Assembly (NCBI GenBank): GCA_965178125.1
Contig: OZ237750.1
Coordinates: 868,001 to 932,000 of the forward strand
DNA: 64,000 nt
Source: Bilabrum cf. latius
Lineage: Eukaryota
Direction: 5' to 3'
Of the stretch, positions 1-64,000 are shown piece after piece. The stretch's first letter is position 1. Each line of letters starts with the position of its first letter. The position numbers were made by a program, and so were the translations under genes. Under the pieces are notes generated by a model that saw only the letters and a program-made list of their open reading frames with translations, did not search any database and was not told the DNA's origin.

Positions 1-1
1 C

Positions 2-3000
2 TGTCGATTCAGGGCAGAGGGTGACGTGCTGGCGAGGTAGCGGCGCGCGGGCGCTCCCGGTCACAGCACCCCCGCCGGCTCGCCCCGCACTGCGGCCCGT
101 GGCTCTTCCAGCGCGGTGGTACGAGGAATCCCTGGGGTGGGCAGCTCCTTCTAGGATGAGCAGGCCCTTCGCCACTTCGAGACGAGGCAGAGGCAGGAGT
201 CCTCTGCCTCGCTCGCTGGGGCCGCCGCCGCGACCATGCACCCGCATGGGCACGGTGGCAGCGCGGGCAGCAGCATCGGCTCGCCCCCCGGCCTGGCCGC
301 GGCCGAGTCCGTGACCCAGGCCGATCTCGGCATGGCGGTCTCTCCGCCGCAAGGGCGAGTAGGAGGCGGGGACCGGGCGCCGCCAGGCCCTGGTGCAGTC
401 CAGAGGCAGGGTACCCTTGGCATGAAGATGGACGCGGCAGCGGACGACGGCTCCTCCTCCACGAGGAGCAGCCGGGCCCCGTCCTTCGACAATGTACTGC
501 CTGATTTTGCCGTGCAGCAGATGGCCGCCGCGAGCGGGCAGCCCCATGCACCTGGGGTTCCAGCGAGCGGCAGCACTCCTGGCAGGCACCGCGCCTCGGG
601 CAGCTCAGGCAGCTGGACCAACGCGGCTGCGCATGCCACTGGGCTCCCACCCGGCTTGATTCTCCGGCGCAACGACTCGACCGCAAGCGAGGAGTCGCTG
701 GAGGCTATGGCGGAGATCGGCGGCATCCGCGTGGCGCGGGACGGGACCCTCACCTTCGACATGGATGGCGACCTGGACTTCGGTGATCGGGGTGCCGGGA
801 CGCAGTCGCAATCGATGGCTGATACGCACACATCCAACGCGCTAGGTATGGGTGAAGCCGGCCCAGTCGGTGCTGGAGCAAGGCGTGCGCAAGGTAGCAA
901 CGGCGTCGGGTCTGGCGATGAGGACGCAAGTCGAGGGTCATTCCAAGATCGCTTGCTCGGTGCTGCCATGGGAGCAGGCGGCTCGCCCACGGTCGGGAGC
1001 AGCAGTGATGACGATGACGGCGGCGCGTCGGGGCGTGCCGAACCGCGGCTTCGAGACCCGCGGATGGCCGTGGGTGGGGGCGGACTCGCGTCGGTGCGTG
1101 CCGCTGGTGACTTCGAGTCTTCGGATGCCGGCACACCGGTGGATGGTGTCGCGCTACCAAGCTGCCAGCCAGCCGAGGCAGACACGCTAGCGGTCACTGG
1201 CAGTGGTCCCGCCTCCGGTACAGCGCGTCGCAAGAAAGTCCCCGCCGATTTCCGGTTGGACGAGCTGCGCGAGCACGACGAGGCCAAGCGCCGCGCGGTG
1301 GCTCGCATGGCCGACATGGAGAGGAGCCGCGAGGTGGAGCCTGTCCTGCCGGTGGAGGGCCTGGGAGGCATCGTGCCCGAGGACCTTCTGGGCTCGGCCA
1401 GGGCCTCTCTCGTGCTGGACCGCTGCAAAGCGGTGCATGCAGATAGGCAGGCGGCGGGCCGCGCGCTGGTGTCGAGGAGGTACTACGGCGTGCTGGACCT
1501 TCTGCCGCCCCCTGCCGACGTGGATGCCGGCCACTGGCAGCTGTACTCGCACGAAGCGGGCAGCAGCTAGGAGGGGGTGCGGGCAGACGATGCGCCGCTG
1601 CTCCCAGTGGCTACTGGTCGGTGGCAGCCCTGGTCCGACTTTGATGCCGTGCTGGCCATTCGGCGCCAGGAAACCGACGAATTCTACGACTAGCTGCAGC
1701 CGCTATGCCTGTCGGATGACGACAGGCTGATCCAGCGGCAGGCGCTCGCAGGAATGATCTGGTCCAAAAAGTTCTACCACTTCGGAGTCGACATGTGGCT
1801 GCGCGGGGACCCTTCCTACCCCGCCCCTCCGTCCGACCGGGGTAAGGGAGGCAACGCCGAGTGGAGACACTTCTACTGCGACGCAGTGGTGAGTCTCCCG
1901 GCTCCGTGGGAGTACCCGTGGCCTGCCTGCTGGGACCTGTGCCTGCACACTCCCGCGCTGTGCCTCTTCGACCCCGAGTGGACCAAGCGGCAGCTGCTGC
2001 TGTTCACCCGAGAGTGGATGATGCACCCGAACGGGTCCCTGCCGGCTTACGAGTACAACTTCCAGGACAGCAACCCGCCGGTGCACGCGTGGGCCAGTCT
2101 CCGCGTGTACAACATCTCGAGGGCCATGACTGGCACCGCCGACGTCAAGTTCCTGGAGCGGTGCTACCACAAGAACCTGCTCTACTTCACGCACTTTGCC
2201 AACCGGTTCGATCTGGACCGAAACGACCTCTTCCAGGCCGGGTTCCTCGGGCTGGACAACATCCAGATCATCGACAGGTCTCGCTTCGACGAAGAGCCCG
2301 CCCTGAAGGACGTGCGGCTTGAGCAGGCCGACGCGACCGCGTGGATGGCCTTCTTCGCCCTCACCATGCTGCAGATGTCTCTCGAGCTCGCGCTGCACAA
2401 CCGGGCCTACGAGGACATGGCGAGCAAGTTCCTCGAGCATTTCCTGCGCATCAAGCACGCCATCTTTGGGGGGGACTTGTTCTCCGACGATGCGGAGGAA
2501 ATTGCGGAGCAGACGGTCGGCCAGCGCGGTGATGCTGGTGGCACTGATGCTGACGCCAGGGATGCATTGGCTGCACGTGCTAGCTCTGCGTCTGGGTGTG
2601 ACACCACGACCGGGAGCGCAGGCTCTAGAGGCAGCAGCGGTGCTGGCCGTGCTGCCGCTTCCCGCAGCACTCGCCAGATGGGGCTCTGGGACGATCGGGA
2701 CGGATTTTTCTACGACGCGATCCGCGTGACCAAGGACGATCTGGTGGAAGAGGCAGCGAGGGCAGAGATGCGGCAGCTGACGGACAGGGCCGAGCGAGCC
2801 AGGGCGAGGGCTCTCCGCGGCGGGGCCACCAGCGAGCAAGCCGAGCAGGCGCATGCCGGGGAGCTGGAAGGGTGTTCCTGGGAACAGGTGCTGGCCAGGG
2901 TGCGGAAGCGAAGGCGCGTGCTGCTTCGCGTCAAGTCGTACGTCGGTCTCATCCCTCTGCTCGCAGTGGCCGTGGTCCGGGCCGACACGCTTCGGAGGCT

Positions 3001-3931
3001 GCCTGCCTTCCGCCGCAGGATGAAGTGGTACTTGGACCATCGGCCCGACGTCATCGGCAGGGAGCACCTGTCGCTCGTCAGAGGCACGTGGCACAAGGAG
3101 AGGCGCGCCTGGCTCGATGGAGAGGCGACTAGGGCAGGAGCAGGGGCAGGAGCAGGGGCAGGGGCAGGAGCAGGGGCAGGCCGCGGTGACGGCGACGTGC
3201 TGCTTAGCCTCGTAGACCCTGATCAGCTGCGGAGGGTGGTGACCCGGGTCATGGACGAGGATCAGTTCCTCAGCGCCTTCGGAGTCAGGTCTGTGTCTAA
3301 GGAACACGAGGCCAGGGAGGGTGCGGGTGCCGGGGCGGGCGGGTTTCGTTTCGAGTTCAACGGGTTCAAGGCGGGCCTGCAGTACACCCCCGCTGAAAGT
3401 GACTCGGCGATGTTCGGGGGGAACAGCAACTGGAGGGGGCCCATCTGGATGCCCATCTGCTACCTGCTTGTGGAGGCCCTGTAGCAGTACGACGCATTCT
3501 TCGGCGATGCCATGCAGGTGCCGCTGCCGGCCACCACGGCCACTGCCACGGCCACTGCCACGGCCGGTGCCCAGGCCACAACGGCGGGTGCCGAGGCCAG
3601 CGGGGTCGGTGAGGGGGGGCCAGGGCCCGCAGTGAGGAGACAGGGGTCTCTCTGGACGGCCGCCTCGGAGATCTCCCAGCGGCTCATCGGCATGTTCCGC
3701 ACCGCGGCGCCGGGGTCACCAGCGGCAAATAGTTCCGTGCTCGGCGCTGGACACAGGCCCGTCTTTGGGGGTCTCAGGGTCCACGGGGACGACCCTGTGC
3801 TCAGAAGGCTAGTGCTCTTCTACGAGTACTTTCACGGCGACCTGGGAGCGGGTCTGGGCGCGTCCCACCAGACCGGTTGGACGGGGCTCGTTGCGAAATT
3901 GATCCAGCAGCAGAGCGCGACACCTAGCTGA
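2..3931 (+). CDS. MGH1-like / GH63-family glycoside hydrolase (yeast YMR196W-like), 5' partial, about 1309 aa in the window, read with TAG=Gln
   Basis: One frame from nt 2 to TGA 3929-3931, interrupted only by TAG at 38, 152, 1568, 1691 and 3482. Family motifs: RRQETDEFY..IQRQALAGMIWSKKFY, WEYPW..WDL, REWMMHPNGSLPAYEYNFQDSNPPVHAW, FLGLDNI, EQADATAWMAFF, FGGNSNWRGPIW, FYEYFHGDLGAGLGASHQTGWTGLVAKLI. Confidence 0.88.
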
Positions 3932-4168: not shown

Positions 4169-6811
4169 ATGAAGTCCACGCTAGCTGTCTTAGCCGTTGC
4201 TGCAGCAACCATTGCTCGCGGTGCAAACGTGTACGAAGCCCTGACGACGGAAAATGGTCTCGCAGACCTGAAACAGCTGGTCGATGCGGCAAGCGCATCC
4301 GTGAAAACCCAGCTCACTGCCAATGGCAACCAGACCGTGTTCGCCCCTGAAGACCCATTGAGTGCAGACGATTTCCCTGCGTTCTTAAATTTTGCCCTGA
4401 ACAAGCCATCGTCGCCGGTGACCGACGTGCTTCTGTAGCACGTAATCAGTGAGTCTGGAAGCAATCCCGCATGTTTGGGTGCTTCGACAATCTGATCAGT
4501 ACTGCTCGAAGTGATGCTTTGTATATTGCATGCCTTGGATTGTTGTAGCTTCTTGAGGTATGCTGAAAAATGGTCTGATTCCGTGACTACACACCTCGTT
4601 CGCTTCGCGCTACGGCGCCACGGCGCGTGCGTGACGTGGCTCGAATTGAACGCGGTGTGGCGTGGCAATGCAGGCTTGACTTGCACTGCACCAACATCAC
4701 CGTGGTTAAGAAGAACCAAACAGCTACTGTGGATATGTCACGGTGCCCTCTGGGATGTTGTGGTTGTCAGCCCTTCCTGTTGTAGCACACGGATAGACTG
4801 TCACCATCTTGCAAAGCTGCCGCGCTGATTTGCCTCACTGTGGCAGTAGAGTTTGACCAAACTGTACCATTGGGAGTAGTTCCGTTTGAAACATAACTGT
4901 TTGGACGGGTTGTTTCGTGCACGAGCCTATCCAACGACGTGCGGGGATTCGACCTGCGGGGATTCGGCCTGCATGATGCTGACGATGCGGATCTGGCCTC
5001 GCCATCATCAGTACGGGCCATACCGTCAATATTCGCTCGACCACTCCATTCATCTCGCAGACGGCTAGAGAATTAGCAGTTCGGGTATCACGACGACGAA
5101 GACGTCCGTGGACTCCCTACTAGATAGCAACCCGATCGATGTGCAGCTGGATGGCAGCAACGTGCGAGTGGGGACCACCAACACCTTCCCGCAGGCCACC
5201 GTCACCACGGCAGACATCTCGCTGGACAACGGCATCGTGCACAAGGTGGACAAGGTCATCGTCCCGGATTCCCTCGCGGGAGCCCTCCCCACGCAGACTC
5301 TGGCCGGGCTGGCGCAGGATACCCCCAGCCTCTCCACCCTCGCCTCGCTCGTGCAAGGGGCCTCCGACGGGGTCCGCGATGCCCTGACTACCGGATCCGT
5401 GACCCTGCTGGCACCCACGAACGATGCCTTCATGAAGGTCGAGACTGCAGCTGTGCAGTACCTGCAGGACACCGCCAACAAGGCCGTCCTGGATCAGGTG
5501 TTGCTGTTCCACGCCATCCCCAGCTCGTACGCTTACTCCTCCGGGCTCACCGATAGGATGGAGCTCGGCACTGCGCAGGGATCGGGTGCCACCCAGGGCA
5601 TGCTGACCGTGTCCATCTCTGACGACATGGTCAAGTTCCAGCCCGCCTACACTGGGGCTGCCACGGTCGAGACGCCCGACCAGGAGTCCACCTCCGGGAT
5701 CGCTCACCTCGTGTCCGACGTGCTGATGCCCGTGGCCGTGCTGGACAGCGTGCCCACCACCGTGCAGAAGTCCATCGTGGAGCCGTCCGCCGCCGTAAGC
5801 ACCCTCCGGACGCTCATCGACCTGGCCCCGGGAGCCAAGAGCGTGCTCGAGGGCACCCCCGCCGACGGGAAGAAGCTCACCGTCTTCGCGCCTAGCAACG
5901 ACGCCTTCACCGCGCTGACCACCAACTTCCCCGCCGCCGTCAAGTTCCTGACCAACCCGAACGTGGACAAGCTGGAGGCAGTGCTGGCCCTGCACGTGGT
6001 GCAGGCAGACACCCGCTACTCCGCCGCCGACCTGGCCATACAGGGTCTGGCCAAGGCGACCCAGATCCCCTATGGGGAGACCACTAGCGTGCCGGCTCTC
6101 GGCAATGGCACCCTCGCCGTGACCAGGGGCTCTGAAGCGTCAGGCGGGGCCGTCTCGGTGGCCAGCGGCTCGCAGACCGCCGTCAACGTGGCGGTGGCAG
6201 ACTTGGCTGCGGGCAACGGCGTGGCGCACGTGGTGGACGGAGTGATCCTCAGCGACGCGCTGGCAGGACTGCTGCCCACGCAGACCGTTGTGCAGGTGGC
6301 TGGGGCCACGGGCTCGCTGTCCACGCTCACCGCCCTGGTGGGCCTCGCTTCTGACGGGGTGCAGGAGGCGCTGGTGGGCGCCGGGGTGACCCTGTTCGCG
6401 CCCAGCAACGACGCCTTCGCTGCCCTGTCCGCCAGCCAGGTGGCGTACCTGCAGGACCCAGCCAACCAGGCAGACCTGGATGCCGTGCTGCTGTACCACG
6501 TCATCGGGGACAGCTACACGTACGCCGAGAGCCTGACCGACGGGATGACCCTGACCACGGCGCAGCCTGGAGCACCGGGCCTGGCCGTGTCTGTCAGCAA
6601 CGGCATGGTCACTGTCAACGGGGCCAAGGTGACGACCGCCGACGTGGAGACCACGACCGGCATCGTGCACATCACCGATGCGGTCTTCGTGCCTCCCTCG
6701 GTGGCCGACAAGCTCCCCTCGAGCGGTGCTTCGGAGCAGGCCGCCGCCATGGCTGGAGCTGGGGTCCTGGCTGCGGCCGTGGCTGCCGCTGCTGCCACCA
6801 TGCGCGCATGA
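4169..6811 (+). CDS. Secreted, probably GPI-anchored fasciclin (4x FAS1) protein; exons 4169-4448 and 5061-6811, about 676 aa
   Basis: Signal peptide MKSTLAVLAVAAATIARG. Four FAS1 repeats (TVFAP/TLLAPTNDAF/TVFAPSNDAF/TLFAPSNDAF, LLxHV, NGIVHKVDKVI-type H2 motifs). Hydrophobic C-terminal GPI-like tail. In-frame TAG at 4436 and 5066; ends at TGA. Confidence 0.85.
4449..5060 (+). other. Spliceosomal intron (612 nt) in the fasciclin gene
   Basis: GTGAGT donor at 4449 and catctcgcAG acceptor at 5060. The phase-1 join restores HVI-N-G*RISS within the first FAS1 domain. Confidence 0.75.
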
Positions 6812-6996: not shown

Positions 6997-9900
6997 ATGA
7001 TGCGTCTGATGCCAGCATCTCATATTTTAGTTGTTATTGCACTTGTCTAGGCTGCCCGTGAGTGCTTGGATCCTTGCAGAGTTGCGGTGTTCTTTTCGGA
7101 CGAGTCGATCGGTTCCCCATCTGAGCTTCCTTGTTCCTCCCATCATTGTCTCTTCTCTCAGTGGCTGGATTCAACCCACAAGTATGCACCAACAATGGCT
7201 CCCTATCCCTAGGCCGCGATACTGAGTGGAAATGCTCCGCTGGTACCATCTCGGAGGGTGGATTCAAGGTAAGTTCGTGGCCGGGTGCGGATTGCCCCCG
7301 TTCGCAGGCCCCATGCTTGTTGATACCATGCACCCTGTAGACCCAAACAGGTGTAACTTAATCTCTTAATGATGCGTGTGATACTCGTCTGGGTGAATAA
7401 CGGACAGTTTTGAGGCCACAGGGCACCTGTCTACCCTGCCGCGTGCACCGTAGACGCCACGATGATGGCTTGCAACACGTTTCGTCGGAAGATCTTTCGC
7501 GTCAAGTCTCACAGCCTATCTCAAATTCATGTATTCTTTTGTTCCTACCTGACGCGCAGGAGATCTCTATGTCGATCACGATCGATGGCACCGCTCTCGC
7601 CACCGCTGGCACCGCTCACGAACTGCAGGTCCTTTTCTTCAATAAAGACGCCCAGAACCACACGAGTTGGAACAAGCTCGCCGACAACGCGTTTAACGAC
7701 CTGCTGAGCGCACAGGGTACTTCTCTGGAATTCTACCTGATCCCGCCCACGGGCGATCGCACCGTCGACGTGAACCTGAACGAGGACGCCGTGCTGGGCC
7801 CGAGGCCCGTTCGCACCAGGGACTGGATCCCGCAGCCGCCCGGTGGCGGCAATCCGACCATTCCCGCAGTTGACGCCGTGTCTGGTACCGGCTGCGGCAA
7901 CCAGGCGGCGTCCCCCGCCACCCGCTTCGCCTACTCGGCCATCCGCCAATTCGGCGGGGACAGCGGCCCGGGCAACCGCACGGCGCTCTACGCCATCGCA
8001 GGCGCCGTCCCCACCCCCGCTTCCGGCAAATGGAGCGTGGTGGTCAGCCTACCCGTGACCAAGTACCCCTTCGCCTAGGGCGAGGGCGACTTCAGCTTCG
8101 CCGTGGCTGCCCGCTGGACCCAGCAGCGCGCCGACCGGCCTAGGTTGCAGCGCAGCGCCGTCATGGAGGGCGGTGACTTGCTCCCCTCCCAGGGCCACTT
8201 CGTGCAGGGCTCCATCTCTGCGGGGTCCGGTCCCCAGCAGACCCTGGGCACCGTGCTCCCAGGGGAGGTGGTGTGCGCCGTGCTGGAGGACGAGTACGCG
8301 GTGCAGTAGTACATGGTGCGCAACGTGACCTCCCGAGTGCAGTCCGTCAGCCCGCCACCCGCCCAGGGGCTGCTGAGAAGCACGGTTTTCAAGGCTGAGA
8401 ACCTTGCTCTCGCCGGGTTTGCACCCGTGGCCCAGACCGAGTTCACCGTGCAGGGCACAGTGTTCAACTGGCAGAATCAGACTGTCGCTGGCACACCCTA
8501 CGGCGACCAGGGCTACCAGACGATCCAGCTGGACGACAACTTCGTGGAGTCCTTTACAGAGGAGGAGTACGGCCAAGATGACAACTTTGTGGAGTCCTAC
8601 ACGGAGGAGGAGGATGGCCAAGCTGACAACTTCGTGCAGACCTACACGGAGACCGAGGGCGCCACCGTGACTGCAAACTACCTCGGGCTGGTCGCCCCTG
8701 CTGTTACCTTTTAGCCGCGGTCCGTGATTGTGACCATGCCCACCTTGCTCGAGTCCGAATACTTCCCCACGTCCACGTCCTCCGGGTGGCCCATCGACTG
8801 GACCACAACAGGCCCATTCTTCGACATCACCGTAGAGTCTGTGGAGGTGAACAAGTTTCCCAACATCTACGACAGCGAGAACGGCGCGACAACCTTTGAG
8901 GACATGAAGCTGGACACGGTGGCTGCGGGTGACCGCAATCTTACCTGGGACCAGGACTTCAAGGTCTTCGAGGTCGTGCACCGCGACCCCTTCTACTGGA
9001 AGACCTCTATCAAGTTCTCCAACGTGAGGGACAACACCGGCATGATGCACGACGACCCCTACCAGACCTTTGACGTCTTCATGGTGGCCGCCACGAGCTT
9101 CACACCGGCACCGCCCGCCAACCCAACAACCGTGACGCCCCCTACCGGCGTGGAAGCTGTAGCGCACAACTTCATGCCCCTGGGCCAGGGAAACACCATT
9201 GTGCGGCCTGACGACGACCAGATGAACTTCTACAACAACCGCTGGTTCTAGTACAACCCGGCGATCCCCGGGCGGTCGTTCACCATCCAGCCCCTTACGG
9301 GCACTGCCGTCGAGCTGCTCGACAACCGCATGCCCGCGATCCCGGAGCGCATGTTCCTGTTCGTCCGCTCCAAGCCCATCGTGAGCGCTCGCAGCCAGGG
9401 CGGGGAGGCAGTGACCAACTCGGCTGGCATCTCCCAGGTCACCTTTGACGTCTCCGTCGAGGTGCAGAAGATCTCCGGCGAGTGCAAGGGCATGCAGGAC
9501 TGCGCCAAGAAGATCGGAAAGCCTGCCAAGGAGCTGACCGCGCCGTACTGCCTAGTGAAGAACGGTGGGTCCGACTTTGCCCTGCAGCCGACGACTGTGT
9601 GCAGCAACTGCCTGCCAGGGAACAACGATAACGCCCGGGACGTGAGGTGCCCGGAGGAGTACTACTGCCAGGGTAACGACCAGGGGTACTGCCAGAACGA
9701 GCTGGGCTTCTACGTGTGCGATGGGTATGCCGCCGGCTCGCTGGGGCGGTGCAAGGAGAAGGACCCGGAAGGTGTCATCTTGGACAAGTACTGCCGGGAC
9801 TTCCCGACCGGGTCGCCCGTCTCGGGCGGGGGCGAGCAGTACGCTCCTGGGTACGGCTCGTGCGGCCTCACTCGGTTCTACAACTCGTCTGCCCCTCAGG

Positions 9901-10544
9901 ACACCGTGGTGAACAACCCGTACACTCCACTCGCCGACACCGTGCGGGCCGTGCACTGGACCGGGGTGTGCATGCAGGGACGCTGCATGGAGTGCAACCC
10001 CAACTCGAACGCGTGGTATGGAAGCAACCAGGGCCAGCTAGGCAAGACCTGCCTGAACGGACGCATCGTGGCCACTGCCACCTCGGACGGCACCGTTCGC
10101 TCGCTGCGTCACAACTCCGTGGCTGCCGGTGCCATCACGGCTGCCACGTTCATCGGCGTGCTTGTGGTTGGTTTCTTCATCTACACCATGTACGACGCCA
10201 ACAGGCACCGCGCCATGTTCGGGAAGCCGCCGCTGTCATGCTTGGAGCTGCTTGTGGACACTTGCCAGGTGTGGCAGTGCTGCAAGTGCTGCGGTGCCTC
10301 TGAGGAGCACCGGTCCGGAGTGACCGTGCGCATGATGGGCAGCTCGGGCGGAGCAGTCACCAACAACCCCGTGGCTGACTGGGATGGCCACCGCAGGGCC
10401 AGCGCTGCCAAGTCGGCGGACGCGTCTAGCCCGCATCCCCCGATGCAGTCTGGCGTGCCAAACCAGCAGCCCCTCGTGCAGAATGAGGGGGGCAGCTACG
10501 GTGCGGTCCCGCCGGCCACCGCGCCGGGGGCGGGCTTCCACTGA
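6997..10544 (+). CDS. Type I membrane / cell-surface protein with a Cys-rich ectodomain, unknown family; exons 6997-7057, 7162-7268, 7560-10544, about 1050 aa
   Basis: Signal peptide MMRLMPASHILVVIALV*AA. Introns 7058-7161 (GTGAGT..ctcAG) and 7269-7559 (GTAAGT..cgcAG) give matching phases. ORF-track pieces 7410/8103/8313/8724/9330 share one frame and are joined by TAG at 8076, 8307, 8712 and 9249 (plus 7048 in exon 1). Single TM AAGAITAATFIGVLVVGFFIYTMY; ends at TGA. Confidence 0.75.
8532..8660 (+). repeat. Three degenerate 45-bp coding repeats (DDNFVESFTEEEYGQ / DDNFVESYTEEEDGQ / ADNFVQTYTETEG)
   Basis: Read directly in the sequence and its translation. Confidence 0.85.
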
Positions 10545-23399: not shown

Positions 23400-28742
<5,343 letters not shown>

Positions 28743-28879
28743 ATTCGGCAGCTTTGGGAGGCGAGCGTTTGCCGCCAAACCGAAACAATGCATTTCATCG
28801 TTTTGCACCTTACAAAAGTGTACGGACAAGCAATCTTCGATTCAAATTTAGAAAGCACTGCTTCGCCCTTGGACTAAAG
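28743..28879. promoter_or_regulatory. Putative bidirectional promoter between the formin and DNAAF4 genes
   Basis: AT-rich gap of 137 bp or less between divergent start codons; no specific motif identified. Confidence 0.45.
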
Positions 28880-53122: not shown

Positions 53123-55051
53123 TCAGTCTTCGCTACCTGCCTCCTCAAGCGGACAGTGCAACCACTGCAGCTCCAGCGGCCACGCAGCATTGACCCCGCT
53201 ACTACACCGGGGGTGGGCCAGCACCCACTCCAGCTCTGCCTGGCCCCAGCTGACGAGGCCGCCGATCCGGAGCCCTGCGTGCAACTGCTCGTTGCCTAGC
53301 CCAAAGCTGCCGTCAGCATTCACTGTCCCACTCATCCCGAGCGAGATTCCGAGCCCGAGACCCCCGCCCAAGGCCTCAGCACCTCTTGATGCTGGTTGAG
53401 TGCCTCCCCGTGCCTCGTCTCGCGCACCACCGGGTGGCGCCCTGTCAGCCGTGCTGACCCTAACCCTGAACCTGCTCTGCAGCAGCCAAAGGAAAGGATC
53501 TGCAGCGCTACAAGCCTGCGTCAGCTGTATCTCCCACACGGTGGCTCGATCTCCTGCTTTATCAGCATCCCCTTGCCTCTGCAGGCCTAGGATGGCCCAC
53601 ACCACCTGCAGCTAGTCCGGCCGCAGCACTGCCTCCAGCCGCTCGATCATTTTGGGTGTCAGCTGCGAGGGAATGTCCACCCGGAACACCACCTCGAGAT
53701 CGCCCATGGGCCGCTCGTCTCCGGCAGATGCATTGAACTGCGGCGGAGGCGGGCGGTTCGCTGCCTTGGCCGCAGCCGCCTCCATCTCCTGCTTCTGCTG
53801 CAGGGCTTCTGGTGACAGAGGCAGCCCGCCCCTCGGTACCGTGACGATCTGCCCGCTGAACGTGATGCCAGCCCTCCGAATAGGCACGCGCGTGCCGTTC
53901 AGTAGCGTGAGCGAGCGGTTGAAGCCGCTCAGAGCTTCGACCAGCCCGATCGTCGCTTGGAACTGCAGGTTGGCAGGCGTGTGCGGGTTCCACCCGAACC
54001 TGTCGTGCGGCAGCCGGTGCACGACCACGATCGCATCCCCGTTCTTCATGCCCAGTTCCTGGTGGCCTTGGCCTTCCAACGGGTGCGTGTATCCGTGAAG
54101 CGCCCCTGCTGGGACCACGAACGGCAGCGACGCCTCCTGTTCCACCGTGCCCGTCCCGTGGCAGTGCTCGCACGGCTCTGACCACACGAATCCCCGCGCC
54201 CCGCAGCGGGGGCACGGCCGCCTCTCTGCATGCTCGTAGGGCTTCTTCGGGCGCTCTGTGGTCACGCAGGAGCGCGAGCCAGCGGCACGGTCTTCTTCTT
54301 CTTCCTCCTCTGCCCCCCCCTCTTCCTCTGCGTGGCCCGGATGGGAGTGGGCTTCCTTGCAGCTGTGGGCGGCTTGCTGGCTGAACACCGAGTCCTCCAC
54401 CTTGCGGTCTTGCATCAGGTACCAGGCAAGCCCGCTTCCCCCGCAGCGAGAACACACGTGGACATGGTCGGGAGACAGGGCCCCGAGGCCGCTGCATTCA
54501 GCGCAAAGCTGCTGCCGCTTGAACTGCACTTGACGCATTTGCGGCTGCTACAGCTCTTCCAAGGTCAGCTCCAGCACAGCTAGCACCGATCCGGCTTTGT
54601 CAGCCTTCGGTGGAGTGTGGTACAGCTCGAATGCGCCGAACGAGAGTCGTGCCACCATGCTGAAATGTTGCAAGCCCAAGTCAGGCACGACTGATCCGGA
54701 CTGCGATCCCGGTCCTGCCGACTGCGTGCTACCACCGCCCGTCCAAGCCGAATGCCCCATTTCATCGTAACTCGCCTTCTTATCTGCATCGCCCAGAACC
54801 TCGTACGCGGCCTGGATTCGGAGGAACTAGTCGGCCAATTCCTGGCTTGAATTGCTGCCCAGCTTGTCCGGATGTAACTCGAGCATGAGCTTGCGATACG
54901 CTCGCTTGATAGCCCTAGCATTGGACTTTTCTGGAATTCCTAGTTCTTGGTAGAACGTCAACGCCCCAGCGAACGATACGAGCAAAGCCAATGCCAACGC
55001 TACCGAGAAAACCAGGGCCCAACGAACCGCGGGCATCTTGCGCACAGGCAT
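53123..55051 (-). CDS. ER-targeted type I DnaJ/Hsp40 (Scj1/ERdj3-like), up to about 642 aa
   Basis: Signal peptide, J domain with HPD (LHPDK...AYEVLGD..K...YD), four CxxCxGxG-type zinc motifs (CAECSGLG, CSRCGGSG, CPRCGARG, CEHCHGTG) and DnaJ C-terminal domain. TAG at 54827, 54548 and 53612; TGA at 53123. Confidence 0.85.
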
Positions 55052-55311: not shown

Positions 55312-58300
55312 TCACTCGGGCAGGGACAGCAGCAGCGCCGCCGACCGGCACACCCAGTGCTTGGGCTCGAAGGCCGTCGGCAGCCGCACGCTCACCACAA
55401 AGTTCGTGCTGATGCCAGTCGTGCTCAGGGTCCCCGCCCTCTCCGGTGTCTTGTACACGGGGCACTCATACCGGAACAGCCCATCCCTCGCGGGGATGGG
55501 GGCCTCCACGGAGGACGCCCTAATGTCCTCCGCAGCCTCCTCGGCCTCGACGATGCCAGCAGCCGCAGCGGCGCGAGCCGCCTGCACGTCCATCGCAGAC
55601 ATCCTTCCGCCGGCCCCGCCGTGGCCAACCAAGCCAGCCCCGCCGCGAGGAGTCACCCCAGGCACGGCCCCAGCGAAAAACACCCTCCGGCCTCCACCGC
55701 GACGAGTGCTGGCGCCGCCCGCGATGCCTCCCGCCTTGCCGGTGGCTGCACCCCCTCCCGCGGTGTTGATGATGTTGGCTGCGGCCGTGCTGTCTGGAAC
55801 CGCCAGTCCCGCCGCGCGCGCGGTGCGTAGGGCGCGGATGTTGCGGGTCGTCTGAGGCGGTTTGTTGGGTGGTTTGGGCCTGCCCGCCTCCCCGCCGGCG
55901 CCCGGCGTCTCCCCTCCCGTCCCGTCCAAATTCAAGCCGGCCGCCTCCGCCATCTCGTCCAGCTCGGCTTCTCTGCGCTTGGCCTCCCCCGCTTCGTCGT
56001 GGTCGTCCTCCTGCCCCGGCAAGGCGGCCATCCCCGACGTCCCGGCCTTGGGGATGCCGTCGCCGGCACCCTGCGGCAGGCCCGCGGGGTCTACCACGCG
56101 GGGGATGAAGAAGACAGCTGGCATCTTCGAGTAGAGCTGCCCGGGGCGCGCCTCCACGAGACAAGACTCCGCCTCGTTCCACGCGGCTCCTCCGTCCAGG
56201 TACAGCCCAGTGACGATGACGCCGTCGCCCCCCACTGCATCCGGGTCCTCGCTCTCGTCGTCCTCCGCCTCGAAGTCGTCGCTGTCCTCCGAGTCGGACT
56301 CGATCTCGAGGGGCTCGCTGCCCCGCTGCTCGTCGGCCTGCTGCGCTTCCAGCACCTCCTTCTTGCGCAGCACGCGGAACTTGAACGAGAAGTCCAGCGT
56401 GTTGATCGGCAGCATGTACCGCCGCGCGTGCCTCTGCAGCACCGCCGTCAAGAAGCCCTGGGGGAAGAAGAGCGCGCCCAGCTGGAACACCCTCGGCTGG
56501 CCGCGGGTCAGCCACAGCCGCAGGAAATGCACGCGAGACTGCAGGTCCGCGAGCCACGAGGCAAGCGGCTTGAGGGACGGATAACCCACATCCTTCCACT
56601 GCTGAGGCACAGCGTTGTTGCTCACGCACTCCAGCGCGCTCTCGAGCTCCGGTGACAGAGCCACCATGCCGCGCAGCGCTCCCTTCAGCTGAGCAAGCAC
56701 CTCGCGGACGGCCCCAAGCAGCGTGTTGTACTTGGTCAGCTCCTGCAACAGCACCACGGTCAGCGAGCCGTAGAGGCCACGCCTGCTCCTCCGCAGCACC
56801 ACGGGAGAGGCCTCGTCCAGGTCGAGGTCCTCGGGGAGCCTCTCTTCAAGGGAGACCAGGGCCTGCCACAGCACGGGGTCCGCGTCAGGCGGGGCCTCGT
56901 TCGGGTTCTCCTTCTTCGACCTCGCGCGGGAGGACCCCCCTCGAGGACTCGACGGGCCGCCGGCCCCGCTCCGTGCCCCACCTCGTGTACCGGACGCAGC
57001 CGCCGACGCGTGCTCGTCCGCGTCGGCAGCCGCCTGCCCGATGAACCCCATGGCCAGCGTGGTCTCGCAGAGATAACCGGCCTCACGGGTGCGGAACCGA
57101 ACAGCGGCATTCGCGTGCAGGCCAAACACCGAAGGCTCATCGTCGTCCGGCAGGCCCGCGAGATAGGCCCGCAGAACCCTGTGGTCGTCCTTACCCTCCA
57201 CAGACTGCACCCTCACGCCAGGGTGCCCCTCCGGGTCCGTGGAGCTCCGGCGAATGGCCCCTGTCGCCGCCGCAGCGTCCATCCCGTCATCGTCGTCATG
57301 CTCACCGCCGTGACTGCCATCCTCCTCGTCGCCAAACCCGAGGCCCACGGCACCGGAGAGCCCCGCAATCTCGCTGCTGCTCTTGCGCCTCTCTCGTGCC
57401 GCAGAGAAAACCTCCGCAGCCTTCGCCTTGGAAACCACCTCCCGGTCGTGCGCTGCAGGCGTGAATTCGTAGTCCTCCTCGCACACGGCATCCTCCCGCA
57501 TCACGTATCCCAGCAGCGTCAGGAGCAGCCGCCTATCCCAGTCGTCCGTCACCCGACCGCCGTACGAGATGTGCCCGATGACGTGCTTGGAGGCATCGAA
57601 GGGTACGCGGTCCACCACCTTGCTCAGGGCAGCCATGCCCGCCCTCTCCATCCGCTCGCGGGCCAGCATGGAGGGTGGATACCCCTCTGCCTGCTGCAGC
57701 AGCGACCGCAGCACCTCCAGGCCAGTCTCTAGATCTGAGTCGTTGAACTCGTACCGGATGTTCCACCCGAGAGGCCCGAACTTGCGCCGCTCCTACACCA
57801 CAGCGTGGAAGAAGCACAGCCCAAAAGCCAGTCGCTTCCAGACCTTCTCCAGCGGCAGCACATCGTGCGGAGGAAGCGCGGGCTTGATGTCCTGATCATC
57901 CATAGACACGCTCTCGCGGCGGGCCCGACGCGCCTTGCCACTCGGTGTGGGGGCCAGCTGCTGGGCAGGTGTCGCTGCAGAGACGTCGTCGTCCGCCCCG
58001 GCTCCGCTGGCTGCGGCATCGTCCCCGCCTTCCTGCGTTGAGACTCGGGGTCGCTTGGGAGCCGCGGGCCCTCCCTTGGGAATGGGCGCGAGGGTGCACT
58101 CCTCGAGCGCGTCAGGGGTGAGCATGAGCTGGAGGGAGCGCTGTAGATTGGCGCGCAGGCCCTTGGGCGGCTCGTTGGTCATCTTTACTGAGTTCTGCAG
58201 CACGCTCGTTGGGAAGTATGGCACTGGGAAGGAGGTGAGGAACACCCTGTAGCGAGGGTGCAAGGTGGCAGCCTTGCGCCGCTGCGAGGTCAGGATGCCC

Positions 58301-61300
58301 TCCAGACGGGGCAACCACGACTTGGCCAAGTGGCAGTTCTGCAGCAGCACCCAGTTCCCATCGGTGGCAGACTTTTGCAGCAGCACCTCAGCGCTGTGCC
58401 CCTGTCCCGCACCCAGCGATACGACGTGCGTGCGCGATGACATGCCCTCTGCCTCCGCGAACGCCAGCAGCCGCGAGGTGGGGTCAGCTCCCTGCGAGAG
58501 GATGAACACGCAAGGCGTCACGTTGTCTGTGTCCTTAAACACAGCAGCCATCGAGGTGGCGGGCGGGTTGACGAACTGCGGGCCCAGCACAGCACGCACC
58601 AGCATGGAAAGCGTGCGGAGTGCCCGGCTGGGCTGCAGCGCCCGAATTATCACCAGGCGACAGACCTCGTCCAGTCGAGTCGACCACCCGTCGGGTAGCA
58701 CGGGGACGGACGAGGCGTCGTGCTCGACGGAGGCGCGCCCGTTCGCACCCCTTCCTGCAGAATCTGCCCCTCGAATGCCTTCGAAGGGGTTGCCCCGCTC
58801 CGCCCACGCGTTCCACTCCAAAAATTTCTCGCGCATGCTAAGACTGAGGCCCTGCAGGCCTCGCAACCTGGCCCCATCGCTGGGCAGTTCCGTCATGACC
58901 TTGTGCCCGGCAGAGGCCTCTAGGGCAGCGATCATGTCCCAGGCTGCGTGTGACACCATCGCGCGCCCGTGCCTGCGCTTGCTCGCGCTGACGGGAGTGG
59001 CAGCAGCCGAGGGGGCGGACGATGCCTCTGGAGATCGAGGAGACGCGGGTGCCGATGCCGCCGCCCCGGTGGCCTTCGGACTGGATGGCTTGGGGCTTTC
59101 TGTCTATGCTTCCACGTCAGGAGACAGGCCAGGCCGCAGCGGGATCTTGCTGCGGTCCACCACGGCACCGCCGCGCAGCAGCAGCGCGGTCTGCTCCGGC
59201 CTGGCCCTCTTCGAGTCCAGCAGCAGCCGCAGCGAGGCGGCGAGAGCAAGCAGAATCTTGTCGCGCTCGAAAAGCCCCCTGCAGATGTTGAAGAAGACGG
59301 CCTCCGTCACGGCGCGCTGCAGCGCAGAGCACCTCTCCGCAGCGAGCGCCGCTCCCGCGCCGAAGTGCGGTACCGACGGGTCCCGCAGCGCCTTGCCGAA
59401 CAGGTTCACGAAAGACGGCAGGCTCACCTGGTACATGGGATCCACGGAGGCCATGTCCGAGGCACAGAAGAACAGAAGGGAGCCTCTGCGCGCCACCACC
59501 CTGTACCTGTCCCTGGCTTCGGCGATGTCCTGCTGGATCTGCTTGGAGTCCATCAACCTATCCCGGATGTACTTGCTCACGGTCTTGGCCTGGCTGAGGC
59601 TGTCAATGAGGACTTCGTCGTCCAGGATATCGTCGCCGGCCTCGCTGATCTGCTTGAGCACCGTGTCTTCCAGCTGCTGCCGCTCCCTTGAATCGCTGGC
59701 CAGTCGCTCCAGCACCTCACCCCTCCGCTTCTCCACCTCGGGCCGCTCGTGCTCCACAGTGATGGCCAGCAGCTGCTCCTCCAGCCCGCTCACGGTGACG
59801 CCAAAGTCGACCACGTTCACGGTGGTGCTCATCTCCGGCAGCAAGTGCGGGTTGGAGTGCCGAGTGGTGATGTACAGCCTGAAGTTGCCACTCACCAGCA
59901 CGTCTGTCTCACCCACTCGGATCGTGGCAGGGCCCATGGCTTCCCCGCCATCGTCGCCGCCACCACCGCCGGCGAGTGCGGCGGCCAGTCCCAGCGCGGC
60001 GCGCTCGCTGCCGCCCGTTGCGCCTACACTGGCCGCCGGCCGCGCCAGCACCGGTCCGAGGACGGAAGGCAGTGCAGTGCTGGCGTCCTCCAGCAAGAGC
60101 GCGCTACCGTGCTCCATGCACTGCTTGAGCACCTCGCCAAGGGCATTCTCTGCCGCCTCCACCGCAGATCGACCGCCCCCGCCACCTCGCCCTCCTCTCT
60201 TCTTCCTGGACCCTTTGCCCTTACCCGACTTGCCGCTCACCCCAGCTGCCACAACTCCACCCCTAGTTGAAGCCCCGGCTCCGCTCCCGTGGCCGCCAGC
60301 GCCCTTGCCTGAGTCCTCGGCCAGCGACACCACGACTACGTCTTGCCTGCCATCGCCGGCGGGCACCGACTCCATGTTGCGGATCCACCGCACGGCCTGT
60401 CCCTGCGGGTCGATGAGATAGGGCCAGCGAGAGATGCCCAGCGCCACAGAGTCGCCGGCCACTCCGCCAGACTGCTGCCCGAGCCCACCGGTGAGGCTGA
60501 TCCCAGAGATGCCAGGGTCTAGCGGGGGCAGCAGGTGCTGGAAAGATGGGGTGAAGTTCACCGCAGTGCCTGCCGCCTCAAGCGCCGCCAGCTGAGAGGC
60601 AGGCAGCGTGGCCACGATCTCTCTAGCTTCCTGGCTCTACAGCATCTCGGCCGCCGTTAGATTCTCCGCATCACCTTGGATGGCGCCTGCAGCACGCAAG
60701 CGATCCTCGGTCGCCCGGAAGGCCGCGCCGCTGACAACCCCGCGAGGCAAGCGCGGCAGCATGAGTACCTCATCATCCCCTGCAGCGGGGCCGATCAAGC
60801 CAGCTCCGGGAAGAGGGGGACCCAGCGACTGTGACGCCATCGCGATGATGCCGGAATCCGAGGACACGCTGTCGGCAGGCAGACCCTGCACGCCCCATGA
60901 CCGTATCTGCACGTCGGAGGCCAGCACGGTTCGCAGAGAGAAGTCTGCGCGCACTGGCAGCCCCCTTGCTCGCACTGCACTCAGCAATCCTCGCAGCATG
61001 GACGTCCGGCGGGCGCCGTCTAGTGGGCCGGCATAGACAATCATGGCAGTGGCCACGAGCATGTCTCCCACGGAAAGGTCGATTTCCCTCTTCATGACCT
61101 CGACTTCGTTGCGCCAGCGCTCGCCCTCCGATGAGATGCCCTCGGTCAGGCGCCCGGCACGCTGCAGCTTCTGCTTGATGGAAGCCAGCTCTGCTTGCAG
61201 CAGCTGCTTCTTCTCCTCGGCCTAGTCCACCTTGCGCCTGAGCGCCGCCACCGCGTCCTCCACCTCCCTCAGCTTGCCCTGCTTTTCGTCCAAGGCGCGG

Positions 61301-64000
61301 TTGGCGGCCCGGAGCTGCTCATTCAGCACGCGAACTTTCTCCTGCTTCGGCTTAACGTCGGCCGCGACTCGAGTGTAGTTCTCGATGGCGCGAGCCCACA
61401 TGCACAGACTCAGCGCGGCAGTTGACACTGTGCGCACCCTCTCCGGGTCGATGCGCCCGGCTGCAATCGCCTGTCTCACGATGCGCAACCGGCCGGCTGG
61501 GATATTGTCACGGTCATACGACCTGCGGAAACACAACGGCAGAGTGTATACGCAAGCATAAAGTAGGAGAACAGACGCATGCAGTGCTTTGTTGCGTACA
61601 ATAGCTTCATGAACTCACTCAAGACCTTTCAGGAATCCCTGTTTGCCGAGTACCTTCTTAGCAGTGTCCCAGCCCTGTGGTTCCCCTAGCAGCGCGTTCA
61701 CGGCATCCATCACGTTTCGCACGCCCTCTGGCGGCGAAGGGAATGATCGCAGCTCCACGATGTCCTTTGGCTCCAGAGCGTTGAGCGCCTACACGGCGGC
61801 CTGCGATAGAAATGAGATGGGCTCAGCAGTCGATATCAACATGGGTCAAGTTCGATGCGCGCAATCAAGGGCTCGGGCAAAGTAGGCTACGCTGCGAACG
61901 TCACACCGCATACACTTGGCAATCGGTGGGTCTATCGCCATGTCTATCTTACCTCAAGCTCTGGTAGCGCCTGATCCAGCTACCGCTGCGCCTCCTGCTG
62001 CACCATGGCAACCTGCTCGGCCTTGCCACGGACCACCTGCTCCTCGCGTGACACGATGGCGCGCTTCTCGGCAACGGACTCACTCTACTTTGCAAGTTGA
62101 GCTAGAAGCTCCTGCGTAGACCGCGCATTCTCCGCTAAAATGGGCTGTGTCTCGGTCATCTGGTCGCGCAGACGTACCACGGTCTCCTCCACGTTCTCCA
62201 GGCGGTGAATACCAAGAGTCAGGCGGTAGATAGCCGCGCGCTGCTCGCTACAGCGGTGGCTCAGCCTCGCAGCAAACATCTGCACCAGGTCAAGGAAGGC
62301 ACGCGGCGTCACGTACACACGCCGCTGCCGCCCGCCTTTCGCGGCGTCCCCACCGCCGGCGGTCTCACCGCGCAGACTCGCAGCCAGGTCAGCCGCTCGC
62401 GTGTGAATAGCCACGCAGGCGTCCACGAGCACGTGCCGCAGCCTCTCGTTGATTTCACTGCTAGATCGGAGGCCCTGTGCGAAGGGGGGCAGCAGCTCGG
62501 GTCGCTACAGCGTGTACTCGTCGTCCTCGAGCATCTCGCTGCTACCCATGTCCAGGCCCGTGGCGGCCGCGCTGCCAGCACCGAGCCCGGCAGCGAGCTC
62601 GCCCTTGCCCGCGTCTCGACTTTGGGCCTCTGGCTGCGCCCCGGGAATGTGAGGAGCAGGAATCGTAGAAGGGAGGCACACGAGGCGCAGCAGCCTCGTC
62701 CCGACCGACGACAGGGCTGCGCGCGGCCATTGCTCGAACCAGTCGATGCTGCAGCAGCTGAGCAGCGACGGGAAGGTCCTCAGTCGCCTCCTGAGCGTGG
62801 CGCCCACGGGAGAGGTGGCCAACAATATGTGAAGGTTGGCCCGCAGCCTCTCCACAAACGTAGCGTAGAGGTCGTTCTTCGCCGCTGCTTTGGCAAAGGC
62901 ATCCTCCTCGTCCTCATCGTCGTCGTCATCACCAATGTCATCGACCTTGCCTGCTGCGGCAGCCGCCTCCTCCTCAGCCTGCACCTTTTCCTCCAGCAGC
63001 TGCTACTCGTCCGCCAGCACCTGCCCCATGCGGCCGTAGATCATCTCCAGCTCATCCTGCTCCCACAGCCCGGGCACCTCGCCCTGATTCAGCACGCAGT
63101 TCACATCCTCAAAGAGCGCCTCCTCGCCCACCATGGCGTCAGGCAGCAGCATAACCGTCTTCTGCTTCTCCACCCCGGCCTTGAGCATCGCTGTCTTGAG
63201 CGACTCGCGGAAGGTTTCCACCGTGTACGGCACGCCACCTTCTCCTTGCACCACATCGCAACGAGCAATGTATGCGGCGAGGCGAGCCAGCGACTGCTTC
63301 CCGCTGCCTGCCACGCCCACGAGCATGGCATGCCCGCGCGGCTGCGACAGCACGCGGCACAGCCGCACCACGTGCTCGATGGCCCCCCGGAAAAACACCA
63401 ACTGCATGGGACTGCGCGGGTAGTCCAGGTTGTGATCCTGCAGGTAGGCATCCAGCAGTCGACCGAGCCGGCTGGGGTCCGGACACTCCTCGTACCTCAT
63501 CTGTGACTCGTCTTCACCCGGAGTGAAGAAAGACCCGAACACGAGAGGACCGATGGTCGCGCGCTGCGTCTCACCGGGCCTTCCCTTCCCGTGCGGTAGC
63601 TGCACGGAGCTCATCCCCGACACGGACGTGGCGGCGATGGATGCGCCATCTCCCATCGACCTCGGCTCAGCCTCCGAGCCTCCGTCGCCGGCACCCGGCT
63701 GGTCTCCAAGTACACCGAGTGCCTCGGGGCCGAAGAGATCCTCCCAAGTCCACGGGAGTCGGAAATACCGATGTAGCGTCTGGACGAGGGTCGTGGTGAA
63801 CCACGTACGGTCTTTCTCGCTGGCGAGCCTGTCGTGGAACAGCCTCATGCACTCGTGCATCCACAGTCGGGCCTGCACGGGGCCAGTCCCGCACTTTTCC
63901 GGCTGCCCCATCAAGATGCCCTTGAACACACCAGCCACGTCACGCAGGTTGAACATATAGTGTGCCTTGCTGGGCGTAGGCTTCATCTCTGCCGTTACCC
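55312..64000 (-). CDS. Axonemal dynein heavy chain, 3' part (AAA3 lid, AAA4, stalk/MTBD, AAA5, AAA6, C-terminal domain); 5' partial; introns 61801-61952 and 61523-61618
   Basis: PTPSKAHYMFNLRD, AAA4 P-loop GVAGSGKQS, FPSLLSCCSIDWF..WP, RWPYLIDPQGQA, FILSQGADP, GNWVLLQNCHL, TNEPPKGLRANL, YGGRVTDDWDRR, YECPVYKT..R.G.LSTTG.STNFV. TAG at 63003, 62505, 62085, 61980, 61789, 61222, 60637, 59104 and 57793; ends at TGA. Confidence 0.95.
61523..61618 (-). other. Spliceosomal intron (96 nt) in the dynein MTBD
   Basis: GTGAGT donor and tccgcAG acceptor. The phase-2 join gives FLKGLE-SYDRDNI. Confidence 0.85.
61801..61952 (-). other. Spliceosomal intron (152 nt) in the dynein stalk region
   Basis: GTAAGA donor and atcgcAG acceptor. 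The phase-0 join gives ALPELE-AAV*ALNAL. Confidence 0.85.

Follow-up and report, generated by a model that had tools for sequence, protein, structure and literature searches.

UAG very probably encodes glutamine in nuclear genes of a GC-rich, stramenopile-like eukaryote

The 64-kb stretch of DNA analysed here (the window) very probably comes from the nucleus of a eukaryote, GC-rich and probably belonging to the stramenopiles, in which UAG is read as glutamine (Gln) and the only terminators are UGA, which is used mostly, and UAA (NCBI table 15). The central claim of the original prediction, that UAG is a sense codon for Gln, is borne out by ORF statistics, codons of orthologues, conserved alignment columns, and spliced transcript contigs. 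The code itself is of a type already described (UAG=Gln, found in Iotanema and Protocruzia), whereas the lineage is probably new: no report of this rare variant seems to exist for this eukaryote branch. Moreover, the analysis adds that the change concerns UAG only, that it is common to at least two related organisms, and that more distant orthologues are without in-frame TAG.

Gene Models and In-Frame TAG Codons

The 15 gene models of the window (19,021 codons; GC content 59-68% per 4-kb window) contain 79 TAG, 0 TAA, and 0 TGA codons in frame, the two zeros arising partly by construction because the ORFs are delimited by TAA and TGA. About 80 in-frame TAGs, spread over all 15 genes, had been predicted, and our count agrees, with the single TAGs of the fasciclin and RabGAP models and two N-terminal TAGs of the GH63 model depending on the choice of presumed start codons. 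The counts previously given for individual genes stand for the F-box/WD40 protein, formin, dynein (in the spliced CDS), and the ARM protein, whereas the two-pore channel has five TAGs and not seven.

Ten models have Pfam support, and Pfam matches extend across the TAGs. On the plus strand, a GH63-like glucosidase (2..3931; 5' end open, TGA end; Pfam PF22422/PF03200) carries five TAGs (38, 152, 1568, 1691, and 3482), and a fasciclin-domain protein (4973..6811; presumed start 4973, TGA end; Pfam Fasciclin, four stretches, E 3.5e-70) carries one (5066). The same strand encodes a two-pore-channel-like protein (17855..21154; TGA end) with two Ion_trans domains (Pfam, two stretches, E 1.2e-46) and TAGs at 19145, 19205, 19331, 19466, and 19757; a TPR protein, called DNAAF4-like in the original prediction, that matches Pfam TPR families only (29061..31205; TGA end; TAGs at 29172, 29577, and 31059); and a giant armadillo-repeat (ARM) protein of 4049 codons (31561..43710; TGA end; Pfam Arm, E 1.6e-190, 83 repeats recovered) with six TAGs (31879, 32944, 35983, 37831, 39733, and 39784). 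The minus strand encodes an F-box/WD40-like protein of 2151 codons (10799..17254; TGA end; Pfam WD40) with 13 TAGs (16015, 15697, 15652, 15376, 14596, 14314, 13861, 13621, 12805, 11998, 11296, 10891, and 10819), a RabGAP-TBC protein (21368..23029; TGA end; Pfam PF00566, E 9.7e-25; TAG 22798), and a formin of 1797 codons (23400..28793; TAA end; Pfam FH2, E 1.3e-20) with 11 TAGs (28544, 28505, 28202, 27698, 27305, 27221, 25943, 24674, 24662, 24515, and 24437). Also on this strand are a DnaJ protein of 642 codons (53123..55051; TGA end; Pfam DnaJ, DnaJ_C, and DnaJ_CXXCXGXG), laid out as J domain, Cys-rich domain, and C-terminal domain, with TAGs at 54829, 54550, and 53614, and the 3' part of an axonemal dynein heavy chain (55312..63998), which runs off the window and is identified by Pfam dynein domains and a best PDB match at E 1.3e-216.

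The five models without Pfam support are a cysteine-rich membrane protein of 991 codons on the plus strand (7569..10544), which is a TAG-sense ORF with a GC3 of 0.83, a TGA end, and TAGs at 8076, 8307, 8712, and 9249; an ORF of 820 codons without known family on the plus strand (50563..53025; TGA end; TAGs at 50608 and 52297); and three tandem ORFs on the minus strand. The first of these (43908..45359, 483 codons, nine TAGs, TGA end) shows weak coding evidence (GC3 0.59), and the second (46073..47683, 536 codons, four TAGs, TAA end) and third (48633..49994, 453 codons, three TAGs, TGA end) are 99% identical over 200 nt; a C-terminal domain is common to all three.

The dynein model consists of three exons (61953-63998, 61619-61800, and 55312-61522) that form one frame of 2812 codons ending in TGA. 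The window is therefore not free of introns: GT..AG introns of 96 nt (61523..61618) and 152 nt (61801..61952) interrupt this gene. The spliced CDS has TAGs at 63005, 62507, 62087, 61982, 61791, 61224, 60639, 59106, and 57795, and three others (61946, 61934, and 61889) lie in the larger intron and are in frame only if it is unspliced.

Stop Codons

A strong gain in ORF length is obtained only when TAG is read as sense. The longest ORFs then reach 4050, 2222, 2100, and 1813 aa, compared with a maximum of 1307 aa under the standard code, 1307 aa with TAA as sense, and 1352 aa with TGA as sense, and no major ORF is longer with TAA-sense. Off frame, the same DNA contains 15.5 TGA and 1.8 TAA per 1000 codons; thus, frames of 2000-4000 codons free of both would not be expected by chance. 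UAG makes up approx. 10% of Gln codons. A UAR=Gln code (table 6) was rejected: if UAA were used as Gln at the CAA:CAG ratio, 14.8 in-frame TAAs would be expected in the 15 models of this window, and none is observed; moreover, TAA ends genes both here and in the relative L002, whose TPR orthologue terminates with TAA five codons past the end of the alignment. In the window, UAA and UGA are terminators and neither is used as sense. Since UAA is not reassigned, the change affects UAG only.

Stop codons of dual meaning have been described for Condylostoma, karyorelictids, and Blastocrithidia. A comparable context-dependent UAG, read as Gln inside genes and as a terminator at some gene ends, is unlikely here, even though a gene truly ending at UAG would be unrecognisable among TAG-sense ORFs from sequence alone and some TAGs lie near 3' ends, such as those five codons before TGA in the F-box gene and seven before TAA in the L002 TPR orthologue. 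However, no gene model needs a TAG stop, as 13 end at TGA and two at TAA, although rare dual use might escape notice in a sample of 15 genes; the 3'-proximal TAG of the F-box gene corresponds to Gln in a relative, and the last five residues after it are conserved. The continuation of homology in the same frame across TAGs, asserted previously, holds for dynein, GH63, ARM, F-box, and DnaJ, and in each of them extends past the last TAG. Furthermore, neither TAA nor TGA serves as sense in the window, unlike in the known ambiguous codes.

The Amino Acid at UAG

Among all 55 TAG-versus-sense pairs, Gln occurs 26 times, followed by Ser, Asn, Ala, and Glu (four each). Where the flanks are identical at 8 or more of 12 positions, the proportion of Gln is 19/24, and at 10 or more of 12 it is 14/15, with Glu in the remaining pair; these best-flanked pairs represent 14 distinct sites, 13 with Gln and one with Glu (F-box aa 1052). 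One further Glu pair has flanks identical at 9/12 positions. In particular, the ARM gene and its L002 orthologue (96% amino-acid identity over 792 aa) differ by TAG<->CAG/CAA changes in 5/5 cases, and three ARM TAG sites face Gln in 14 of 16 orthologue comparisons. In the TPR gene, the exchange runs in both directions, in near-identical contexts: our TAG 31059 corresponds to CAG in L002, and three L002 TAGs correspond to our CAA, CAG, and CAG.

Conserved columns agree at several sites. The column aligned with dynein TAG 57795 has Gln in 116/117 homologues, that of GH63 TAG 3482 has Gln in 97/120 (the best 120 of 3947 homologues with E<=0.001), and Gln is the commonest residue (33/82) in the ARM repeat column at TAG. 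Other columns are dominated by different residues, namely Asp (105/120), Asp or Glu (69+39/120), and Lys (56/120) in the dynein stalk and Lys (85/145) and Tyr (71/148) in DnaJ; the positions concerned are variable or lie at the surface, and Gln occurs in most of them. If distant homologues were the only guide, dynein would hardly discriminate between Gln and Glu. Such columns, dominated by Asp/Glu, Lys, or Tyr, together with pairs from relatives that show Glu (two) or Leu (two), are what speaks for UAG encoding Glu, Leu, Lys, or Tyr instead. Nevertheless, the predominance of Gln in well-flanked pairs, the 5/5 ARM changes, and the occurrence of TAG at two strongly conserved Gln columns (dynein and GH63) leave an amino acid other than Gln close to refuted and very improbable.

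UAG in Transcripts

Whether UAG is present in mature mRNA was checked in the interval 50401-64000. Both dynein introns are absent from contigs of three runs from two studies (X5, X6, and X7), X6 and X7 having both splice joints of X5, and the spliced frame is open; the DNA-like run X1, which also covers the region, retains both introns and is identical at every letter. The supposed RNA runs are labelled 'RNA?' and X5 'probably DNA', and their transcript content is shown by the splice joints. A spliced X5 contig of 9079 nt matches 57793-64000 letter for letter and therefore carries all nine dynein UAGs. Similarly, all three DnaJ TAGs lie inside X5 and X7 contigs, and the 820-codon ORF is covered by an X5 contig (50719-52817) and an X7 contig (50739-52821), again with no differing letter. 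For the dynein and DnaJ region, an assembly or editing artefact is thus refuted, and the question of whether the TAGs are edited or spliced around in mRNA is answered for dynein: 9/9 exonic TAGs are unchanged. That the TAGs are untranslated, as sequencing or assembly errors, pseudogenes, or codons edited or spliced out of mRNA, can be dismissed as extremely improbable, because, although the three intronic dynein TAGs are indeed removed, the same letters recur in four runs (X1, X5, X6, and X7), the spliced contig keeps the exonic TAGs, relatives keep the same TAG positions, and the 15 genes, which have no frameshifts, contain just one of the three stop codons in frame.

Relatives and Phylogenetic Placement

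The UAG=Gln code is common to at least two related organisms. Formin TAG 28544 is also present in L002, and protein fragments of relatives end exactly before the F-box TAGs at aa 698, 958, 1203, and 2058 (numbered in the stop-to-stop reading of the window's gene); the organisms concerned are one approx. 90% identical and one 55% identical. At six other F-box TAG sites, relatives have Gln (four), Glu, and Leu. In DnaJ, two fragments from relatives (P0272 and P0241) break off immediately ahead of codons that are CAG in the window. ARM orthologues were compared in L001-L010; no in-frame TAG was found in the more distant orthologues, and the relatives with TAG-free orthologues are L003, L001, L009, and L010.

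Two dynein gene trees support the description of the organism as stramenopile-like; they comprise one gene, with the window row on a long branch and of odd composition and with many rows unnamed, and therefore do not amount to a phylogenomic placement. In the FastTree phylogeny, the window falls in a clade of 58 rows (support 99), and each of the 21 named ones is a stramenopile; in the quick IQ-TREE phylogeny, it falls in a 24-row clade (SH-aLRT 99) whose 12 named rows are all stramenopiles. Full-text literature searches found no described case of nuclear UAG reassignment in stramenopiles, and the cases compiled in PMC11687900, in its accessible part, likewise agree with the original prediction on this point.

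Comparison with Known Codes

According to the accessible parts of the sources, UAG alone has been reassigned to Gln, while UAA and UGA still terminate, in Iotanema spirale of the Fornicata (Panek et al. 2017, PMC5304391) and, among ciliates, in two phyllopharyngean lineages as well as in Protocruzia tuzeti (PMC11687900). This type, formally NCBI table 15, shares with the present case the codon, the amino acid, and the two remaining terminators and, as far as those texts extend, in-frame UAG at Gln-conserved positions and nearby relatives that appear to be without the change. In contrast, the window belongs to a different eukaryote branch, grouping among stramenopiles in the two dynein trees, and its GC-rich genome ends genes mostly with UGA (13/15), whereas UAA is given as the predominant terminator of Iotanema in the available text of Panek et al. 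(2017, PMC5304391).

The UAR -> Gln codes (NCBI table 6), listed in the consulted part of PMC11687900 for many ciliates, Ulvophyceae, Hexamita, Streblomastix, and Amoeboaphelidium, share UAG = Gln and a suppressor-type tRNA-Gln as the likely route, but differ in that UAA has not changed its meaning in the window. UAG is uncoupled from UAA, as here, in codes for other residues, which the excerpts of PMC5304391 and PMC11687900 report as Leu in the rhizarian exLh and a phyllopharyngean, Ser in Scotinosphaera, and Glu in an oligohymenophorean ciliate; in the window, the residue is Gln.

Proposed Decoding and Evolutionary Implications

By analogy with studied nuclear stop-to-Gln codes, as presented in the available portion of Panek et al. 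(2017, PMC5304391), UAG would be decoded by a putative tRNA-Gln(CUA) derived from tRNA-Gln(CUG). That UAA is still a stop would be accounted for by the CUA anticodon, which does not pair with this codon. Recognition of a third-position G by eRF1 may have been lost or weakened, with UAA and UGA still being read. No tRNA gene was found in the 64-kb window or in 11 related loci, and the window contains no Rfam match and no eRF1 gene.

We lean slightly towards an independent UAG-to-Gln reassignment of fairly recent date, within a clade of marine stramenopiles that are GC-rich. If true, it would extend nuclear code changes to stramenopiles for the first time. AT pressure is the usual explanation for stop-codon capture; here, a stop codon would have been captured in a GC-rich, UGA-preferring genome that is not under such pressure. 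It would also become possible to reconstruct, step by step, how the tRNA and eRF1 changed across the boundary. Both the species that use the new code (this organism, L002, and Logan/ENA fragments) and the TAG-free relatives can be reached in public data.

Gene content of the window

Large eukaryotic genes are densely packed across the window, whose GC content is 59–68% per 4 kb. With the standard set of stop codons, the longest open reading frame (ORF) comprises 1307 aa. Treating TAG alone as a sense codon yields ORFs of 4050, 2222, 2100, and 1813 aa; treating TAA alone as sense changes nothing (no ORFs are joined, and the longest still comprises 1307 aa), and treating TGA alone as sense gives a longest ORF of only 1352 aa. 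Counted on both strands, TGA triplets (1415) are more numerous than TAG (768) and TAA (262) triplets. The long frames opened by sense TAG are real genes. In particular, the gene at 31561–43710 (plus strand, 4049 codons) encodes an armadillo-repeat protein (ARM; Pfam Arm, E = 1.6e-190), and the region 55312–61522 (minus strand) holds part of an axonemal dynein heavy chain gene (Dynein_C, AAA_9, AAA_lid_11, D6 P-loop, MT stalk, and AAA_8; best PDB match, E = 1.3e-216). The other genes encode a formin with an FH2 domain, a two-pore-type channel with two Ion_trans domains, and, as assigned by Pfam, a fasciclin protein, a RabGAP-TBC protein, a TPR protein, a GH63-like glucosidase (2–3931, plus strand), DnaJ, and an F-box/WD40-like protein, while five ORFs have no Pfam family. 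The window has no rRNA or tRNA gene and no match to any other Rfam family.

The 15 gene models (19,021 codons, with presumed starts) contain 79 in-frame TAG codons, which confirms that in-frame TAG extends across genes, and no in-frame TAA or TGA; the terminal codon is TGA in 13 models and TAA in two. Off frame, this DNA has 15.5 TGA and 1.8 TAA per 1000 codons; thus, the long frames free of TAA and TGA are far beyond chance. The TAG counts of the original prediction were reproduced for the F-box (13), formin (11), dynein (9), and ARM (6) genes, but the channel gene contains five TAGs instead of the seven claimed.

From the ARM protein (4049 aa), 83 repeats were recovered, and its orthologues at the metagenome loci L001, L003, L009, and L010 align over approx. 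3650–3900 residues. Several long Gly/Ala/Ser-rich low-complexity insertions lie between the conserved motor domains of the dynein (55312–61522), the formin frame includes a tract of approx. 200 aa of GTG/GMG repeats that derives from a microsatellite-like repeat (approx. 26500–27200, minus strand), and five tandem GGADFGK units (approx. 52900–53020) close the ORF at 50563–53025 (plus strand). On the minus strand, 43908–50222 holds three ORFs in tandem, none with a Pfam family, that have a common C-terminal domain of approx. 65 aa and are unusually rich in TAG (9, 4, and 3). Copies two and three are 99% identical over 200 nt; the paralogues could not supply TAG–CAG pairs, as these 200 nt are all that they share and contain no TAG. 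Most of the best listed matches of the GH63-like glucosidase (2–3931) are 50–59% identical over approx. one-third of the query; the named few among the matches listed are 'glucosidase' records of bacteria, and a eukaryote protein set contributes a single listed match. This gene may have been horizontally acquired.

TAG codons in DNA and spliced transcripts

Seven public sequencing runs from three studies contain 50% or more of the words sampled from 53100–63000, and four of these runs (X1, X5, X6, and X7) were compared with the window over 50401–64000. The DNA-like run X1 retains introns and shows no differing letters over this region. In X5, X6, and X7, which come from two studies other than that of X1, contigs skip 96 nt and 152 nt of the dynein gene, corresponding to two GT..AG introns on the minus strand at 61523–61618 and 61801–61952, respectively (coordinates after the shift stated by the tool). 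Because both introns are skipped, these contigs come from spliced transcripts, a reading decided by the splice joints and not by run labels; none of the runs containing this region is recorded as RNA. Without the two introns, the dynein gene forms one open frame of 2812 codons that ends in TGA. A single X5 contig of 9079 nt covers 57793–64000 without a differing letter and keeps all nine exonic dynein UAGs, and all three DnaJ TAGs lie within X5 and X7 contigs that likewise show no differing letters. Three additional dynein TAGs (61946, 61934, and 61889) are intronic, being in frame only in the unspliced sequence. The matching DNA and spliced contigs therefore exclude assembly error, editing, and splicing around the TAGs for these 13.6 kb (50401–64000).

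A single difference was seen between runs: at 57772, the X5, X6, and X7 contigs have C, and the window and X1 have A; X1 contigs are broken at 57760–57793. This position may be a polymorphic site.

Amino acid encoded by UAG

Columns of distant homologues give a mixed picture. One dynein TAG falls at a column with Gln in 116 of 117 homologues, and a GH63 TAG at a column with Gln in 97 of 120 (the best 120 of 3947 homologues, E ≤ 0.001). Three of the six ARM TAGs lie within the internal repeats of the protein; at these columns, Gln is the commonest residue in one (33/82), Arg dominates the second (54/82), which adjoins an ambiguous insert, and the third is mixed, so that the repeat profile alone would be weak support for Gln. 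At dynein stalk columns, TAG is aligned with Asp (105/120), Asp or Glu (69 + 39 of 120), and Lys (56/120), and at DnaJ columns with Lys (85/145) and Tyr (71/148). Assignment from distant dynein and DnaJ columns alone was thus equivocal between Gln and Asp, Glu, Lys, or Tyr, and close relatives decided the matter.

Searches for short proteins recovered, from other assemblies annotated with the standard code, pieces of these same genes. The F-box fragments comprise six from an organism 88–93% identical to that of the window and a seventh from one with 55% identity. Five of them stop exactly one residue short of a window TAG (aa 698, 958, 1203, and 2058 in the stop-to-stop reading), with fragment ends from two organisms at aa 2058, and fragments that read through window TAG sites carry Gln four times, Glu once, and Leu once. 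Two DnaJ fragments end right before window CAG codons.

Scanning metagenomes with the ARM protein yielded 11 loci. One of these, L002, is syntenic with the window (formin, TPR gene, and ARM) and also needs TAG as a sense codon, since it contains three TAA-bounded ORFs with 7, 7, and 3 TAGs. Over 792 aligned ARM codons (96% identity), all five differences between TAG and a sense codon are exchanges with CAG or CAA, in both directions; the TPR gene adds further well-flanked differences (four Gln and one Glu). Among all pairs of TAG and a sense codon (n = 55), Gln is found in 26, a share that changes to 19 of 24 when at least 8 of 12 flanking residues are identical and to 14 of 15 (with one Glu) when at least 10 of 12 are identical, the last set representing 14 distinct sites (13 Gln and one Glu). 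The background frequency of Gln in window proteins is 3.8%. Moreover, in more distant ARM orthologues, three window TAG sites correspond to Gln in 14 of 16 comparisons. By sequence comparison, then, the Gln identity of UAG is settled by close relatives, and the 14 of 15 well-flanked pairs bear out, with high confidence, the claim that UAG is a Gln sense codon. TAG makes up 9.9% of the Gln codons.

Stop codons retained

If UAA encoded Gln at the observed CAA:CAG ratio (113:604), 14.8 in-frame TAA codons would be expected, and none was observed. TAA terminates two window genes, and the L002 orthologue of the TPR gene ends in TAA five codons past the end of the alignment. UAA is not reassigned and remains a stop codon. 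Judged on 15 genes, UAG may in addition terminate some genes, an unlikely dual role; the sequence past the last TAG is conserved wherever this can be checked. The code thus has UAG as Gln and UAA and UGA as the stops, which is formally NCBI table 15.

Distribution among relatives

In-frame use of TAG or shared stop positions were found in the window organism, the approx. 90%-identical organism of the Logan fragments, L002, and the source(s) of the ENA fragments (P0396 and P0241). The ARM orthologues of L001, L003, L005, L009, and L010 (45–66% identity) contain no TAG in 2606–3908 aligned codons; they include those of the AT-richer L001 (39% GC) and L009 (49% GC), in which TAG, were it a sense codon, should be frequent. 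L003 (66–70% identical) has no TAG in 3908 ARM-aligned codons or in the coding parts of five neighbouring ORFs; this absence is less telling because GC3 is approx. 0.95 and every L003 ORF ends in TGA. In L008 and L010, a TAG lies seven codons beyond the end of the ARM alignment, in low-complexity tails, and could be their stop codon. The distribution suggests that the code change arose inside the group after the lineages of L001, L003, L005, L009, and L010 had split off. The L003 ARM orthologue is located at 2594–15241 of a contig with 73% GC, and here too the TPR gene adjoins ARM, although, unlike in the window, it is encoded on the other strand.

Placement of the organism and comparison with known codes

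The best named dynein matches are oomycetes and the labyrinthulomycete Hondaea. In a FastTree dynein tree of 105 rows (16 of 120 homologues, all mammalian DNAH7 duplicates, were removed), the window row and its partner P0001 belong to a clade of 58 rows (support 99) in which all 21 named rows are stramenopiles, with alveolates and Plasmodiophora outside. A quick IQ-TREE analysis of 40 chosen rows agrees (24-row clade, SH-aLRT 99, 12 of 12 named rows stramenopiles). This placement is that of one gene, with a long branch and deviant composition in the window row; named rows, identified by the source labels of the homologue listing, form only part of the clades. P0001, the nearest tree partner, is likewise unusually long (4995 aa).

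Nuclear genetic-code changes are rare, and those separating UAG from UAA are rarer. PMC11687900 lists only a few changes that uncouple the two codons. Like the window organism, Iotanema spirale, Protocruzia tuzeti, and two phyllopharyngean ciliate lineages are described in PMC5304391 and PMC11687900 as having reassigned UAG only, to Gln; the same papers give UAG-only changes to Leu, Ser, or Glu for a rhizarian, Scotinosphaera, and certain ciliates. UAR is given as Gln in many ciliates, ulvophytes, Hexamita, Streblomastix, and an aphelid (PMC11687900). A full-text search of the main text of open literature, mostly at the level of listings and abstracts, found no nuclear stop-codon reassignment in stramenopiles; as far as openly searchable literature goes, the prediction that no UAG reassignment had been described for this group holds. 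The code variant is of a known kind, and the lineage that carries it is probably new. By analogy with known systems, UAG would be decoded by a tRNA-Gln(CUA), and eRF1 would no longer recognise the G of UAG; for Iotanema, Panek et al. (PMC5304391) describe a T32G change in the GTS motif of eRF1, an example of a change that faces the third base of the stop codon. The related metagenome loci yielded no tRNA gene.

If UAG = Gln arose anew and independently here, beyond ciliates and metamonads, the case would be a data point on the frequency of stop capture and on the genome composition under which it occurs. Genes of these organisms, and those in their metagenome bins, need to be called with table 15. 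In public protein sets, genes of the group are chopped at TAG, and the fragment records P0241, P0247, P0272, and P0393–P0399 end at window TAG/Gln positions.
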